The notes under the pieces: generated by a model
Seen by the model: only the letters and a program-made list of their open reading frames with translations
What the model was told of the DNA's origin: nothing
The model's database searches: none
IMG/VR virus record: IMGVR_UViG_2703718828_000004
Span: 1 to 39,994 of that record
Direction: 5' to 3' (one strand)
Source of the DNA: a virus
Lineage: Duplodnaviria > Heunggongvirae > Uroviricota > Caudoviricetes
DNA length: 39,994 nt
Translations under genes and position numbers: made by a program
Part shown: positions 3,566 to 34,257 of the stretch, piece by piece
Layout: every line of letters starts with the position of its first letter
Position numbering within the stretch: the first letter of the stretch is position 1

Positions 3566-4273
3566 TTATGCCGCCTGTTTTAGTTCGTTAACTCTGATGT
3601 TCATTACCTGAACGCATTTAGCCTGCGCCTCCTCGTTGCCAGCCATTAATTGCCAGTCACGCTGATAACGCTCGATGAGTTTTTTCTTGTCAGTTTCTGT
3701 TGACGCATAATCGCTGAAGTCTTTCAGGATTTGTTCGCAGTCAACCGATGGAGATTTCTGGTTGGTATTTTCTGGTGATGGTTTGTTATCTGATGCTGGG
3801 ATTGCCCATCCCGGCAGCGATGGAGGGAGCCAGTAAAATCCTGTTCCATCCTTCAGTTTTGCCCTGTGCCACCCCTGCTTTTTATCGAGAGATGTTTGTG
3901 CGAAACCTTCCTCAAGGTTATACAGATACCGACCGATTCCCCACTGAACGGCAGCACGCTTCATTGCACCTGAACGACCACCTTTGACGGCTTCTACCTG
4001 CGTGTTTTCAGCAGCATCCCATTTGGTTACCCATTCGGAATCAATCTTTATTGATATGCCGCATTCAACTCCGCCGTTGTTGGGAATATCGCGGTATTCA
4101 TTGCGCCATCCTGCTTTGCCGCAAACATCGTCCAGGCGTTTCATGATTGCCCGGTTCGTGACATAAGCCAGCACCATAGCCCACACCTTGCCATCTCGTG
4201 TTTTACCGCTTTGCTGTATTCGCCATTCGATATCTTCAGGGCTGAATGGCTCATCGAATTTATTCAAATCCAT
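3566..4273 (-). CDS. Rad52/Sak-type single-strand annealing recombinase (235 aa)
   Basis: Motifs RAIMKRLDDVCGKAGW and GGRSGAMKRAAVQWGIGRYLYNL; occupies the lambda bet position. Confidence 0.65.
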   Translation of the reverse strand: MDLNKFDEPFSPEDIEWRIQQSGKTRDGKVWAMVLAYVTNRAIMKRLDDVCGKAGWRNEYRDIPNNGGVECGISIKIDSEWVTKWDAAENTQVEAVKGGRSGAMKRAAVQWGIGRYLYNLEEGFAQTSLDKKQGWHRAKLKDGTGFYWLPPSLPGWAIPASDNKPSPENTNQKSPSVDCEQILKDFSDYASTETDKKKLIERYQRDWQLMAGNEEAQAKCVQVMNIRVNELKQAA

Positions 4274-4281
4274 AATTCACC

Positions 4282-4452
4282 TCAGAATGGACATGGCCCA
4301 AGGAAATAACGCTGATTTAATACTTCAGTCTTTGCCGCATTTAAAAATACGCGAACACCTTCACGATCTCCCTTCTGGCGATACATTAACGCCTGCTGCG
4401 TGTACATGCGTCTCTGTAACTTGCTCTCCTTCACTGTGGTTGCAAGTGACAT
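4282..4452 (-). CDS. Hypothetical small protein (56 aa)
   Basis: ORF MSLATTVKESKLQRRMYTQQ... with strong RBS GAAGGAGATATTC; below the track cut-off; alternative frame 4361-4546. Confidence 0.35.
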   Translation of the reverse strand: MSLATTVKESKLQRRMYTQQALMYRQKGDREGVRVFLNAAKTEVLNQRYFLGPCPF

Positions 4453-4527
4453 GAATATCTCCTTCGTTTCCGATTAATTCTTTCATCTGACGAATGAATT
4501 CTTCGTCTGACCAGTTATCTGTAAAAC

Positions 4528-4680
4528 TCATTTCCTGCGATACCACGGAAGGTTGATAGCTGATTTCATCGCTTTATTTGCTTCAAGCCACATTTTTGAA
4601 TCACCAATAAATCTGGCTATTACTGCTTTGTTTTGTGCCGCACGAAGCATCTGGTGATTAATGGCTATTTCATTGCGCAT
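4528..4680 (-). CDS. kil: Kil-like host-killing protein (50 aa)
   Basis: ORF MRNEIAINHQMLRAAQNKAVIARFIGDSKMW...; resembles lambda Kil from memory; overlaps the cIII 3' end as in lambda; GGAGG RBS. Confidence 0.45.
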   Translation of the reverse strand: MRNEIAINHQMLRAAQNKAVIARFIGDSKMWLEANKAMKSAINLPWYRRK

Positions 4681-4799
4681 AACGCCTCCAGTTGTTTCTT
4701 TGCTGCTCTGATTAATTGTTTAACTCGGCGTGATAATTCAGATTCGTGCGGGTAGAAAGCGGACATGACGCCGCTACCCGCGAGCTGAAAGTGCATCAT
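4665..4799 (-). CDS. cIII: cIII-like protease inhibitor (44 aa)
   Basis: MMHFQLAGSGVMSAFYPHESELSRRVKQLIRAAKKQ weakly resembles lambda CIII; AAGGAG RBS; position between kil and N. Confidence 0.45.
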   Translation of the reverse strand: MMHFQLAGSGVMSAFYPHESELSRRVKQLIRAAKKQLEALCAMK

Positions 4800-4862
4800 G
4801 GGTAACTCCTTATATTTGATTGCATAACGAAAACGCCTCGAGTGAAGCGTTATTGGTATGCA

Positions 4863-4889
4863 TATAAAAAAGCCCTCACACTGGAGGGC
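4863..4889 (-). terminator. Rho-independent terminator between the N-proximal cargo gene and cIII
   Basis: On the - strand: stem GCCCTC/GAGGGC followed by TTTTTT. Confidence 0.55.
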
Positions 4890-5032
4890 AAAGAAGATTT
4901 CCAATAATCAGAACAAGTCGGCTCCTGTTTAGTTACGAGCGACATTGCTCCGTGTATTCACTCGTTGGAATGAATACACAGTGCAGTGTTTATTCTGTTG
5001 TTTATGCCAAAGATAAAGGCCGACTATGCGGC

Positions 5033-5503
5033 CTAGTAGAATACCCAATTTTCTGTTTCTTGGTTGTGTCCAAAGTTATATTCAATATCTGGTGTTGATG
5101 TATCAATATTCTTTATCCCATCAACAAGAGTTGATACAACAGCCAAATCTTGTTTGATTCTCATTAAATGGTATTTCTTCCGGCGCAATAAACTCTCAAT
5201 GGCAAGTTTCTTCGTTGGGAATGCAAAAGATCTTTCTGCATTTTTTGCTACTTTCTTAATTGCATATCTATTTCTCCTTTGTTTCCATTCCTGTAACCAC
5301 TGATTTGGTGCTGGTTTAAAATTAACAATCCAATGCGCAGGAACCAACCATGCATAATGCTCTGTCTGATGAAAAGCTATATATTGAAGTGCGAATATTT
5401 TTATCCCATCTTCTTCAACTGTCGCCTGGAATCTCCAGAAAACAGGCATTCCATCATGTTCAGTTTCTGATTCAGGAAAAGGTACGCTCCATGATTTTGT
5501 CAT
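5033..5503 (-). CDS. Hypothetical AT-rich early protein (156 aa) directly downstream of N
   Basis: RBS GAGGTGAGAT 9 nt after the N stop; clearly lower GC than neighbours; no recognisable motifs. Confidence 0.6.
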   Translation of the reverse strand: MTKSWSVPFPESETEHDGMPVFWRFQATVEEDGIKIFALQYIAFHQTEHYAWLVPAHWIVNFKPAPNQWLQEWKQRRNRYAIKKVAKNAERSFAFPTKKLAIESLLRRKKYHLMRIKQDLAVVSTLVDGIKNIDTSTPDIEYNFGHNQETENWVFY

Positions 5504-5511
5504 ATCTCACC

Positions 5512-5838
5512 TCAAATAAGTGGTTTGCTGCCTAATTTCATTTTCTGGCGACCAACACAAGTTACACCCATTTCACTGCGTGGCTTGCTGTACCATGTGC
5601 GCTGATTCTTGCGCTCAATACGTTGCAGGTTGCTTTCAATTTGTTCGTGGTATTCAGCCAGCACCGTAAGGTCTATCGGATTCAGTGCGCTTTCTACTCG
5701 TGATTTCGGTTTGCGATTCAGCGAGAGAATAGGGCGGTTAACTGGTTTTGCGCTTACCCCAACCAACAGGGGATTTGCTGCTTTCCATTGAGCCTGTTTC
5801 TCTGCGCGACGTTCGCGGCGGCGTGTTTGTGCATCCAT
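5512..5838 (-). CDS. N: Antitermination protein N (lambda-type, 108 aa)
   Basis: MDAQTRRRERRAEKQAQWKAANPLLVGVSAKPVNRPILSLNRKPKSRVESALNPIDLTVLAEY... is near-identical to lambda N from memory, including the Arg-rich motif. Confidence 0.9.
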   Translation of the reverse strand: MDAQTRRRERRAEKQAQWKAANPLLVGVSAKPVNRPILSLNRKPKSRVESALNPIDLTVLAEYHEQIESNLQRIERKNQRTWYSKPRSEMGVTCVGRQKMKLGSKPLI

Positions 5839-6106
5839 CTGGATTCTCCTGTCAGTTAGCTTTGGTGGTGTGGTGGCTGGTAGTCTAGCTCCAGCTTGTT
5901 GAGTCTCATTCGGAGGGGTATAACCGGCACCCCAGCGATTTTTCCATGCGACAACGTGCGCGTTATGGCGGCCTTATCGCCCGCGGCTCCCCATCTCGTC
6001 CACGCTATTGCTAGCGTTGGGAGCGCTTCACCGCTCAACAGTAGGTAAGCACTTGCCAGTGACTAGCTGGCTTCACCACACCCCAAAGCCTTCTGCTTTG
6101 AATGCT

Positions 6107-6138
6107 GCCCTTCTTCAGGGCTTAATTTTTAAGAGCGT
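6107..6138 (-). promoter_or_regulatory. nutL (boxA CGCTCTTA and boxB GCCCTGAAGAAGGGC)
   Basis: Reverse complement of 6107-6138 gives the lambda boxA and boxB sequences in the N leader. Confidence 0.85.
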
Positions 6139-6180
6139 CACCTTCATGGTGGTCAGTGCGTCCTGCTGATGGCTTAAAAT

Positions 6181-6264
6181 ATACCTACAGGTAAAACCCC
6201 TGTCTATACCTGTAGGTAAATAAAATTGATGTGAGAGTTTACCTGCTTGAATTTTCAGGTAATT
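6181..6264. promoter_or_regulatory. OL operator cluster and pL region
   Basis: Two 16-bp palindromes (TACCTACAGGTA, TACCTGTAGGTA) plus TTACCTG-N10-CAGGTAA, matching the OR sites. Confidence 0.7.
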
Positions 6265-6280
6265 AATTTTTTGGATTGAT

Positions 6281-6305
6281 ATAAAAAAGCCCGCTTTGCG
6301 GGCTG
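6281..6305 (-). terminator. Terminator of the cI operon
   Basis: On the - strand: stem AGCCCGC/GCGGGCT followed by TTTTTT. Confidence 0.65.
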
Positions 6306-6315
6306 AAAGGAGATG

Positions 6316-6612
6316 TCAGAAGCTATTTGGATTGCTTGGCCATTGCGGCAATTTTGATTCTACTGGGGTGTGTTTGGGTTTGAGTCCGTTTAAGTAGTCA
6401 AGGCGCTCAATGGCGCATTTATACATAGCAATCTGCTCTGATGACATGTCGTCGTATGACATGCCTTTGAACTTTTTAATTATCGATTCTGCCTCATGTA
6501 TAAGATTCTTCTTCCTCATGAGTTCAGCTGTATGCTTAGAGCTTACAGGAGATAACTTTGCCCATATGAAGCAGATGATTACAACAGCGACTACTATGCC
6601 GGGTATAAACAT
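6316..6612 (-). CDS. Small single-pass membrane protein downstream of cI (98 aa from ATG; track ORF extends to a TTG at 6630)
   Basis: N-terminal hydrophobic helix FIPGIVVAVVIICFIWA; AT-rich; 15 nt downstream of the cI stop; terminator follows. Confidence 0.55.
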   Translation of the reverse strand: MFIPGIVVAVVIICFIWAKLSPVSSKHTAELMRKKNLIHEAESIIKKFKGMSYDDMSSEQIAMYKCAIERLDYLNGLKPKHTPVESKLPQWPSNPNSF

Positions 6613-6626
6613 TTGCTGCTTTATCC

Positions 6627-7313
6627 TCAAACTTTTGGCAGATCGTCCTGGTCTACGTACCTGGTGTGTTTCACAATAGCTGAAACAAAATGCATTTTAT
6701 CAACTTCTTCAACAGGAAGAGTGATTGGGCGGTGATCACTGTTTATGCTACTAAACTGATAATCACCGTCTCTTGTTTTGTTCATGATCTTTATCATGTT
6801 GTGGCCGTCTTTGGTCCTTACAAAGACTTCATCACCTGGATGTACTGGCGTATTTGGTTCAATAACAACATATTCTCCTGACTGAATCCTTGGCCACATG
6901 CTGTCACCCTTAACCTTCAGACCGTAAGCATCTTTATCGCCGCTGTAGATGCTTAACCAACCGGATCTGAATTCAATCATATCCACTGAGCCATCAACTC
7001 CCAAAACGGCTTCACCAATTACCGGAACAAAACCCGCACGAACATTACCCGCAAACTCAAGATGGTCCGTAGCTCCAGCTTTACCATCTGCAAGCATGTC
7101 CATCCATCCGCGTGGGAGATTAAAAGATTTTTCAATTAGTTCCATCATATCGTCAGCAATGCGTTTTTTTCCGCTTTTTCCTTCCGGATACAGCATTCTG
7201 GAAACGTATGATGGTTCCCTTTCTATTCGACGAGCCAACTCTGAGGCCTTTCCATTACAGAATCGGTCTCTTATCTCTATCAGCCTTAGTCGTCTTTGTT
7301 CGTATTTATCCAT
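6627..7313 (-). CDS. cI: CI-type prophage repressor (HTH plus S24 LexA-like peptidase domain, 228 aa)
   Basis: N-terminal HTH; C-terminal S24 motif KVKGDSMWP (Ser nucleophile); divergent from cro across the operator region. Confidence 0.85.
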   Translation of the reverse strand: MDKYEQRRLRLIEIRDRFCNGKASELARRIEREPSYVSRMLYPEGKSGKKRIADDMMELIEKSFNLPRGWMDMLADGKAGATDHLEFAGNVRAGFVPVIGEAVLGVDGSVDMIEFRSGWLSIYSGDKDAYGLKVKGDSMWPRIQSGEYVVIEPNTPVHPGDEVFVRTKDGHNMIKIMNKTRDGDYQFSSINSDHRPITLPVEEVDKMHFVSAIVKHTRYVDQDDLPKV

Positions 7314-33284: not shown

Positions 33285-33832
33285 TGAAGGCGATTGAAAC
33301 CATACAGCGACAACTCCTCGGCCTGATTGGGCGGGCAGTGGTGAAAAGCATCAGTGCCGCCACGAAATGTCAGACCGTGGATGTGTCCCTGATTGCCGGT
33401 GAACCCAAAGCCGGGGTTGAACATCTTGAACCCTACGGTTTTACCGCAAGGGCAAACAGCGGTGCGGAAGCGGTGGTGTTGTTTCCGGATGGCGACCGTT
33501 CTCATGCGGTGGTTGTTACGGTGTCGGACCGGCGCTACCGCCTGAAAGGGCTGCAGACGGGTGAGGTGGCTGTCTATGACGATCAGGGGCAGTCCGTGAC
33601 GCTGGCCAGGGAGGGGATCGTGGTGGACGGTGCAGGTAAAACGATCACGTTTCGCAATGCGCCTAAGGCACGTTTTGAAATGGACCTGGAAGTGACCGGA
33701 CAGGTGAAAGACCTGTGCGACTCCACCGGCACCACCATGTCAGCGATGCGGCTTGCCTATAACGGGCATCGTCACAGAGAGAACGGTCAGGGCAGTAACA
33801 CCGACAAACCTGATAAAGCGATGGAGGCATGA
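33284..33832 (+). CDS. Baseplate spike / assembly protein V (Mu gp45-like)
   Basis: Position and size (182 aa); beta-rich N-terminal region. Confidence 0.6.
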   Translation: MKAIETIQRQLLGLIGRAVVKSISAATKCQTVDVSLIAGEPKAGVEHLEPYGFTARANSGAEAVVLFPDGDRSHAVVVTVSDRRYRLKGLQTGEVAVYDDQGQSVTLAREGIVVDGAGKTITFRNAPKARFEMDLEVTGQVKDLCDSTGTTMSAMRLAYNGHRHRENGQGSNTDKPDKAMEA

Positions 33833-34257
33833 TGGAACTGTGGCTGACGGTGAACGGTAAACGCACCTGCGCCAGCGCACAACTGGATCCGCTGACCCGC
33901 GCCGTGGTGATTTCCCTGTTTACCTGGCGGCGGGCGGAGCCTGATGACAACGCCGACGTCCCGATGGGATGGTGGGGGGATACCTGGCCTGCGGTACAGA
34001 ATGACCGTTACGGCTCCCGACTGTGGCTGCTTCAGCGCAGCAAACTGACCAATCAGCTGGTGCAGACGGTAAGGGGGTATATCCGCGAATGCCTGCAATG
34101 GATGATTGATGACGGCGTGGTGTCCCGTATTGATCTGGATATCCGCCGCACCGGGATTAATGAACTGGGTAACAGTATCACTCTCTGGCGTCGTGACGGA
34201 CCGGTAATGATTTCTTTTGATGATCTGTGGAGTGCGATAACGCATGGCGGACAGTGA
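33829..34257 (+). CDS. Baseplate protein (Mu gp46-like)
   Basis: Position and size (142 aa). Confidence 0.55.
   Translation: MMELWLTVNGKRTCASAQLDPLTRAVVISLFTWRRAEPDDNADVPMGWWGDTWPAVQNDRYGSRLWLLQRSKLTNQLVQTVRGYIRECLQWMIDDGVVSRIDLDIRRTGINELGNSITLWRRDGPVMISFDDLWSAITHGGQ

Follow-up and report, generated by a model that had tools for sequence, protein, structure and literature searches.

In phage lambda, an Hfq-dependent small RNA initially called LPR1 and later renamed PreS is encoded between ral and ea10, with its 3' end at the terminator tL2a (bioRxiv 10.1101/2024.10.31.621285; review PMC12197685). PreS is seen in the lytic cycle only, and northern blots revealed an ~88-nt band together with a stronger, processed band of ~68 nt. 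Its pairing site on dnaN lies 5' of the start codon; dnaN translation is increased about four-fold, and alaS is repressed. Deletion of its seed or of the full RNA lowers both phage DNA replication and spontaneous phage release (bioRxiv 10.1101/2024.10.31.621285). According to the literature cited in that preprint, tL2a and tL2b stop unmodified RNA polymerase and are read through with N. The preprint gives no account of PreS biogenesis and makes no mention of an upstream hairpin.

Here, we analysed a 39,994-nt stretch of Caudoviricetes DNA (IMG/VR record IMGVR_UViG_2703718828_000004; hereafter the window), the minus strand of which carries a lambdoid early-left (pL) operon. An initial annotation, made from the sequence alone, had singled out an AT-rich ORF following the antiterminator gene N, and the structured non-coding DNA between this ORF and cIII. 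The best explanation for the region, and a probable one, is a mosaic slot of the pL operon that harbours an early protein, orf156, and a block made up of PreS, tL2a and tL2b. As the ORF, PreS, the two terminators and the mosaic boundary sequence are all known entities, the finding as such is already known. A covarying hairpin located 5' of PreS and the reach of PreS-like RNAs into Salmonella phages may be new.

Organization of the locus

The region would correspond to one slot in the leftward early operon of a lambda/HK97-like phage, read in the order N, orf156, the unit formed by the long hairpin, the PreS sRNA and tL2a, then tL2b and cIII (Table 1). Two small recombination-associated ORFs, an Erf-type gene and ssb come after kil. 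Escherichia phage Dewey is the closest phage at this locus, and most of the stretch is common to HK97, H-19B, 933W and many Stx phages.

Table 1. Features of the pL operon around orf156 and PreS (window coordinates, except for the last row)
Feature	Position	Strand	Evidence or remark
CI-like repressor gene	6627-7313
Promoter-like site where pL belongs	6206-6178		Promoter scan
nutL boxB sequence	6107-6121
N antiterminator gene, lambda type, directly upstream of orf156	5512-5838	(-)	Pfam N36, E 1.5e-26; phrog_271
N stop TGA (5512-5514), overlapping the Shine-Dalgarno sequence GAGGTGA of orf156	5504-5514	(-)	8 nt to the orf156 ATG at 5503
orf156 (156-aa ORF)	5033-5503	(-)	HK97 gp45 / 933W L0079 / phrog_1636
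AGGCCG/CGGCCT hairpin, overlapping the orf156 stop codon	5017-5034	(-)	Terminator scan; weak T-rich tail
Long hairpin directly 5' of PreS, candidate processing or stability element	4942-4989	(-)	Core of 14 bp at 4952-4979, extended to ~20 bp
PreS (LPR1) sRNA, ~88-nt form	4866-4953	(-)	Body identical at 82/82 positions to lambda 33925-34012
PreS processed form, ~68 nt (expected)	~4866-4933	(-)
PreS seed region, CGACUUGUUCUGAUUAUUGGAAAUCUUCUUUGC	4888-4920	(-)	Predicted to pair with the E. coli dnaN leader
Terminator tL2a, 3' end of PreS	4866-4889 (stem 4872-4889, U6 4866-4871)	(-)	Terminator scan; z -2.6
Terminator-like hairpin tL2b in the cIII leader	4821-4862 (core 4832-4851)	(-)	Terminator scan; z -5.0; matches lambda 33483-33522
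cIII gene, HK022/HK97 type, downstream limit of the region	4665-4799	(-)	Pfam PF08134, E 2.2e-30; HK97 annotation
kil	4528-4680		Downstream of cIII
Erf-type gene	3566-4273		Match to a gene annotated as Erf-like in epsilon34
Diverged PreS-like RNAs (coordinates of the respective loci)	L012 (epsilon34) 1561-1721; L013 (S135) 1533-1693; L031 3380-3540

The non-coding gap between orf156 and cIII spans positions 4803-5032 (4800-5032 with the cIII start of HK97), and its 230 bp agree with the first estimate. Positions 4861-5027 are 96.5% identical over 169 aligned columns to lambda 33920-34087, from the ral stop to the ea10 start, and positions 4823-4861 match lambda 33483-33522, between ea10 and cIII. 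Judged by these identities, the gap is the ral-ea10 plus ea10-cIII intergenic DNA of lambda, minus ea10.

The whole gap folds far better than shuffled sequences (z -5.6), with four hairpins on its transcribed (minus) strand. The three hairpins of the initial annotation all exist, but the fourth, tL2b, had been missed. The T-tailed terminator had been placed correctly and corresponds to tL2a. The palindrome GTGTATTCA/TGAATACAC is real (z -6.3) but lies at 4952-4979, not 4961-4988. Likewise, the AGGCCG/CGGCCT hairpin exists but is found at 5017-5034 instead of 5013-5030, and it is at chance level (z -1.7, with 14 of 200 shuffles as good), its stem being degraded in lambda and Sf6. It might at most represent a weak terminator or a 3' stabiliser. 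Both tL2a and tL2b are composed of a GC-rich stem-loop followed by a T-run and are homologous to annotated sites of the lambda family, with a weaker tail (TTTTCGTT) in the case of tL2b. The equivalents of 4863-4890 and 4831-4852 are labelled tL2A and tL2B, respectively, in HK620; Sf6 carries the labels tL2A and 'boundary sequence bsq4', and HK97 that of a putative terminator. Rfam searches over positions 4300-6500 with E values up to 10 returned chance-level matches only, and PreS is absent from Rfam.

The PreS block is present in 372 phage records. Upstream of it are found ral in lambda, gene 34 in Sf6, orf156 in HK97 and the window, and orf156 plus two ORFs in Dewey, and the interval between tL2a and tL2b is occupied by ea10 in lambda, by gene 17 in H-19B, or by nothing. 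PreS moves as a fixed unit, with its hairpin and tL2a, between interchangeable gene cassettes. Two insertion slots bound the block, at 4861/4866 and 4984/4994 of the window (loci L002, L003 and L004). The two extra ORFs of Dewey are located between orf156 and the PreS hairpin, and the insertion point of lambda ea10 and of H-19B gene 17 falls precisely between the U-tract of tL2a and tL2b.

Other features of the operon were noted in passing. A 104-aa ORF with a hydrophobic N-terminal segment (6316-6630, minus strand) overlaps the end of the CI-like repressor gene by 4 nt and is followed by a strong terminator at 6288-6304. It matches phrog_10450, which has no annotated function. Its location is that of lambda rex, which makes it a candidate for a membrane protein expressed by the prophage. 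The N leader contains a GC-rich (about 0.58), structured insert of ~215 nt between the nutL boxB and the N start codon (5860-6090, minus strand; RNA fold z -4.35), closed by a stem of ~17 bp, GGCUUUGGGGUGUGGUG / CACCACACCACCAAAGCU. This insert is 99.7% identical in Sf6, HK446, HK633 and Sf101 and 99.1% identical in mEp043, and it has no Rfam match. Lastly, the 31 nt at 5501-5531, from the end of N through the Shine-Dalgarno sequence to the start codon of orf156, recur with 100% identity in Sf6 (L005 2425-2455). In that phage they are located between gene 36 and ral, and they resemble another short mosaic junction sequence.

PreS and its upstream hairpin

When 88 nt are counted back from the U-tract of tL2a, the PreS RNA occupies positions 4866-4953, and lambda has the identical sequence over 82 nt, as far as the terminator stem extends. 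Identity to lambda LPR1 is within the range (at least 92%) that the PreS paper defines as conservation, and the placement in the early left operon, with the 3' end at the GC-rich stem and poly-U of tL2a, is that of PreS. The window copy thus has all the features of PreS that can be assessed computationally and, on this basis, encodes PreS. The initial suggestion of a small RNA in the gap was sound, and the RNA had already been published in 2024. Expression, Hfq binding and dnaN regulation were shown for lambda PreS alone. The 3' end of the RNA would be formed by termination at tL2a. The promoter scan revealed no sigma-70-like site from which a primary PreS transcript could start.

Using RNAduplex on the PreS seed alone, we calculated a pairing energy of -32.3 kcal/mol with positions -48 to -11 of the E. 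coli dnaN leader. The duplex contains two perfect 11-nt blocks, and none of 1000 shuffles was as good. The site agrees with that published, upstream of the dnaN AUG. By pairing, lambda PreS exposes the dnaN ribosome-binding site and raises the level of beta-clamp, which helps lytic phage DNA replication; the window copy, which has the same seed, might act likewise.

Complementarity to dnaN is also present in diverged RNAs. In Salmonella P22-like phages (epsilon34, S135 and others), identity of the PreS body drops to ~73%; it carries a 13-nt insertion, and the tL2a stem differs. Nevertheless, the predicted pairing of these variants with the E. coli dnaN leader reaches -31.0 and -30.6 kcal/mol, values matched by at most 0.2% of shuffles. 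Given the cut-off of at least 92% identity in the published survey, such variants may have gone uncounted, and their complementarity extends the published conservation of PreS.

A second hairpin is found inside PreS, AACAGG/CUUGUU, in which one pair switches between A-U and G-C. A three-way junction (GAAUAA with UUGUUC) was dropped, as RNAalifold and covariation favour this hairpin. Two other types of phage sRNAs were considered and ruled out by their location, the AgvB/AsxR anti-sRNAs being found 3' of pR' and the Pas sRNAs next to capsid, tail, Q, holin and lysozyme genes. The motif CGCUCGUAA inside PreS (4923-4931, minus strand) resembles a boxA, with one base differing from that of lambda nutL, CGCUCUUAA. 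Its invariance in all 122 collected copies of the block is by construction, since the collecting pattern included it. A second nut site was not retained, as no boxB-like hairpin follows the motif and its presence is explained as part of PreS; the likeness to boxA may be due to chance. In Dewey, a 31-aa 'hypothetical protein' is annotated across PreS and tL2a (CDS0041, L002 2651-2746), and the same ORF is present in the window at 4850-4945 (minus strand). It is probably a spurious gene call on a non-coding RNA.

The core palindrome extends to 22-nt arms, and the resulting long hairpin (-24.9 kcal/mol, z -6.3) was matched by none of 200 shuffles. The 5' end of the 88-nt PreS falls at its 3' foot. 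We collected 122 copies of the PreS block from viral contigs and phage records, and their upper stems are of four unrelated sequences, UGUGUAUUCA / UGAAUACAC, AAUGACCA / UGGUCAUU, AAUGCGGA / UCCGCAUU and UAUAGCAGA / UCUGCUAU, plus one G-U wobble variant of the first type. All of them pair. The flanks are conserved, with GAAUAAGCAC on the 5' side and GAGCAAU(G/A)UCGCUCGUAAC on the 3' side. In an alignment of 37 sequences, both partners vary in 8 of the 11 stem pairs, and the proportion of paired cells is 99.1%. The covariation score is 0.41, compared with 0.15 in shuffles (none of 500 reaching 0.41) and at most 0.13 when partners are slid, but the stem types resemble a few block replacements, so that the independent events behind this score are few. 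We infer from these alignments that the hairpin is selected as a structure. We found no description of pairing kept through four unrelated stems in this hairpin.

Its position and covariation suggest that the 5' end of PreS may be set by processing at the long hairpin. The obvious candidate enzyme is RNase III, which acts on ~20 bp of dsRNA, a length that the stem of 14 + 3 + 3 bp, interrupted by single mismatches, would provide. Alternatively, after removal of PreS, the hairpin may shield the 3' end left on the upstream mRNA. Most likely, it would serve one or the other of these roles in the processing of the pL transcript. We also considered that the conserved block might consist of a recombination 'boundary sequence' and terminators only, with no RNA function of its own for the long hairpin. 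Sf6 annotates the block as bsq4, different gene cassettes flank it in different phages, recombinants between hairpin type and PreS type occur, and the block is 96-100% identical in >300 phage records, all of which would be expected of such a linker. Nevertheless, lambda PreS has been shown to act as an RNA, variants that are only ~73% identical keep their complementarity to dnaN, and a pure homology linker has no need for perfect pairing through four unrelated stems, which makes this explanation quite improbable. The unit formed by PreS and the hairpin raises a testable idea on how the sRNA is made, and the current picture of lambdoid phages is unchanged.

The orf156 protein and its possible roles

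The initial description of a 156-aa ORF with a good ribosome-binding site after N was correct; the gap between the N stop and the ATG is 8 nt. Its GC content is indeed much lower than that of its neighbours (36.3%, with a GC3 of 28.7%, vs 49.2% for N, 48.6% for cIII and 50.9% for the window). The protein matches the PHROG 1636 profile over its full length (positions 1-156 of 156, E 1.5e-111), and its amino-acid identity is 98.7% to HK97 Gp45 (tblastn) and 99.4% to 933W L0079. By these matches orf156 is the HK97 gp45 / 933W L0079 / phrog_1636 protein, hence no new gene.

This family is common. Using tblastn, we found orf156 in 88 phage records, including HK97, 933W and many other Shiga-toxin phages, and it was named hypothetical every time. 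It is also carried in prophages by about one in nine complete E. coli genomes (598/5426, 11%), with up to four copies per genome. Its 90%-identity clusters comprise >1400 member sequences, the names of which are solely 'hypothetical' or 'prophage protein'. Among homologues in Pectobacterium, Cronobacter, Brenneria and Rosenbergiella, identity falls to as little as 55%, yet 40 columns stay invariant, which marks orf156 as a genuine protein maintained by selection. When 1.8 billion cluster representatives were searched with a profile, 87 relatives of 130-165 aa were collected. The 55 members scanned are spread over four PHROGs, none with an annotated function, and a Pfam domain was found in none of them.

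As stated at the outset, the protein has no recognised motif. Searches of Pfam, NCBIfam, PADLOC and PDB sequences identified no annotated family, the profile of the family alignment had no match in the PDB, and the PADLOC defence profiles yielded a chance-level match only (Cas1_II, E 0.018, 12 bits). PHROG 1636 itself has no assigned function. Literature searches for the HK97 gp45 / L0079 / phrog_1636 protein returned nothing, and neither did a search for the tL2a terminator.

AlphaFold gave a poor model of orf156 with 22 close homologues (pLDDT 61.6) and a confident one with the 55-sequence alignment (pLDDT 94.8, pTM 0.81). The latter is composed of three long beta-strands (residues 19-30, 33-46 and 50-55), a short strand (83-86), two short helices and one of 33 residues (98-130), and a well-ordered C-terminal tail. 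It has no fold neighbour in the PDB, its structural relatives being uncharacterized phage proteins only. The protein is predicted to be soluble (GRAVY -0.57) and basic (pI 9.1), with acidic ends and a net charge of +13 in residues 61-120. Residues kept across the wide family cluster in this basic centre (K84, K87, R91, A101, R107-K110, H112 and R115). In the model, this conserved basic surface suggests binding to nucleic acids or to an enzyme that acts on them, but basic charge is only suggestive as evidence for a role. Thus, orf156 is a very common early protein with a confident predicted fold that is unmatched among solved structures, and the availability of this model makes it a tractable target for screens of early phage genes in host takeover or counter-defence.

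The relatives of orf156 are always found in early operons, near recombination, methylase, ParB/RusA or xis-int genes. Their neighbours include xis-int in a Pectobacterium prophage, an HNH nuclease with a DNA methylase, a cytosine methyltransferase, ParB-like and RusA genes, and RecE with a replication initiator. In the window, no sigma-70-like site was detected by the promoter scan between pL and orf156. As the 8-nt gap also leaves no room for a terminator, tL2a is the first convincing terminator downstream of pL. We infer that the first pL transcripts yield orf156 along with N, with no requirement for N antitermination. It would be translated from N's own transcript immediately on infection or induction and would be silent in the lysogen. 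Rho-dependent termination or RNA decay could limit its expression. Such timing fits an early lytic accessory function and counts against a SieB-like exclusion function expressed by the prophage.

We tentatively propose a dispensable, early accessory role for orf156 in host takeover or counter-defence, through binding to nucleic acid or to a nucleic-acid-handling host protein. The initial annotation had hinted at anti-restriction or exclusion from the position of the gene; neither role is supported, with no match to Ral or SieB, no hydrophobic stretch of membrane length and, in the promoter scan, no site for expression in a lysogen. Counter-defence is one possible mode of the early accessory function, but a specific anti-restriction or other counter-defence protein in the ral slot, made first and disarming a host nuclease or sensor, appears doubtful. 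Its replacement of ral and sieB in the same slot, its AT-rich composition that looks horizontally acquired, its co-transcription with N with no terminator between them, the DNA methyltransferases that often adjoin its relatives and the spread of the family in temperate and lytic phages are all consistent with that role. The slot is nevertheless weak evidence, as it also hosts unrelated genes. Pfam, NCBIfam and PHROG scans detected no similarity to Ral, which has 66 aa compared with 156 for orf156, nor does orf156 resemble Ocr/ArdA-type DNA mimics or any listed family; DNA mimics are acidic, whereas orf156 is basic.

The case for a sieB-like gene that the prophage would express for superinfection exclusion or prophage fitness is weaker still, and we consider it very improbable. 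Its position does match those of lambda sieB and of hkaP, the putative exclusion gene of HK620, and the 11% of E. coli genomes that have orf156 carry it within prophages. SieB is a membrane protein with a promoter of its own, but no hydrophobic segment visible in the orf156 sequence has the length needed to cross a membrane, and Pfam and PHROG scans gave no match to the SieB family. The sole promoter-like site upstream of orf156 is the repressed pL, and the orientation of the gene, like its coupling to N over 8 nt, links it with lytic early transcription. Finally, relatives are present in Erwinia phiEa2809 and Pantoea LIET2, which we presume to be virulent phages.

Going beyond the early accessory role, one might speculate, with still less confidence, that orf156 founds a class of immediate-early effectors with a new fold, which would bind nucleic acid or a host nucleic-acid enzyme and disarm defence or redirect the host machinery, and that the covarying hairpin acts as a processing signal (e.g. 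for RNase III), freeing PreS from the pL transcript and determining the stability of whichever cassette gene is upstream. The function of orf156, the biogenesis of PreS with its hairpin and the reach of PreS into Salmonella phages are modest and testable leads, not surprises.

Comparison with known systems

As proposed in the initial annotation, orf156 sits where lambda has sieB, orf28 and ral, in the slot between N and the PreS/tL2a block. It has no sequence similarity to the small Ral or to SieB and is soluble and basic. The sieB-type genes of lambda and HK620 are annotated on the opposite strand, whereas orf156 is on the pL strand. Its counterparts are HK97 Gp45 and 933W L0079, proteins of equal length whose genes likewise lie between N and the PreS block. 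HK97 differs by an N gene of a different type and by a gap of 58 nt between N and gp45, instead of the 8 nt of the window.

By analogy only, the hairpin upstream of PreS resembles the elements of lambda sib/tI retroregulation and the RNase III site of the N leader. It is a long, imperfect hairpin of the pL transcript beside a terminator, at a place where a hypothetical cut would define an RNA end and influence how stable the upstream mRNA is. The window hairpin is wholly upstream of the terminator, whereas that of sib/tI includes it.

The terminators agree with the lambda tL2 cluster as labelled in HK620 (AF335538) and Sf6 (NC_005344), with homologous sequences, GC-rich stems and the same order and distance from cIII. 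A gene separates tL2a from tL2b in lambda (ea10) and H-19B (gene 17), in contrast with the window, HK97 and HK620, in which they are adjacent. The U6 tract of tL2a directly follows the stem in the window, whereas GA precedes it in lambda. Lastly, the neighbours of PreS are orf156 upstream and tL2b-cIII downstream in the window, in place of ral and ea10 in lambda. The RNA itself has the same place in the pL operon, ending at tL2a, an identical 82-nt body and seed, and the same predicted pairing upstream of the dnaN start.
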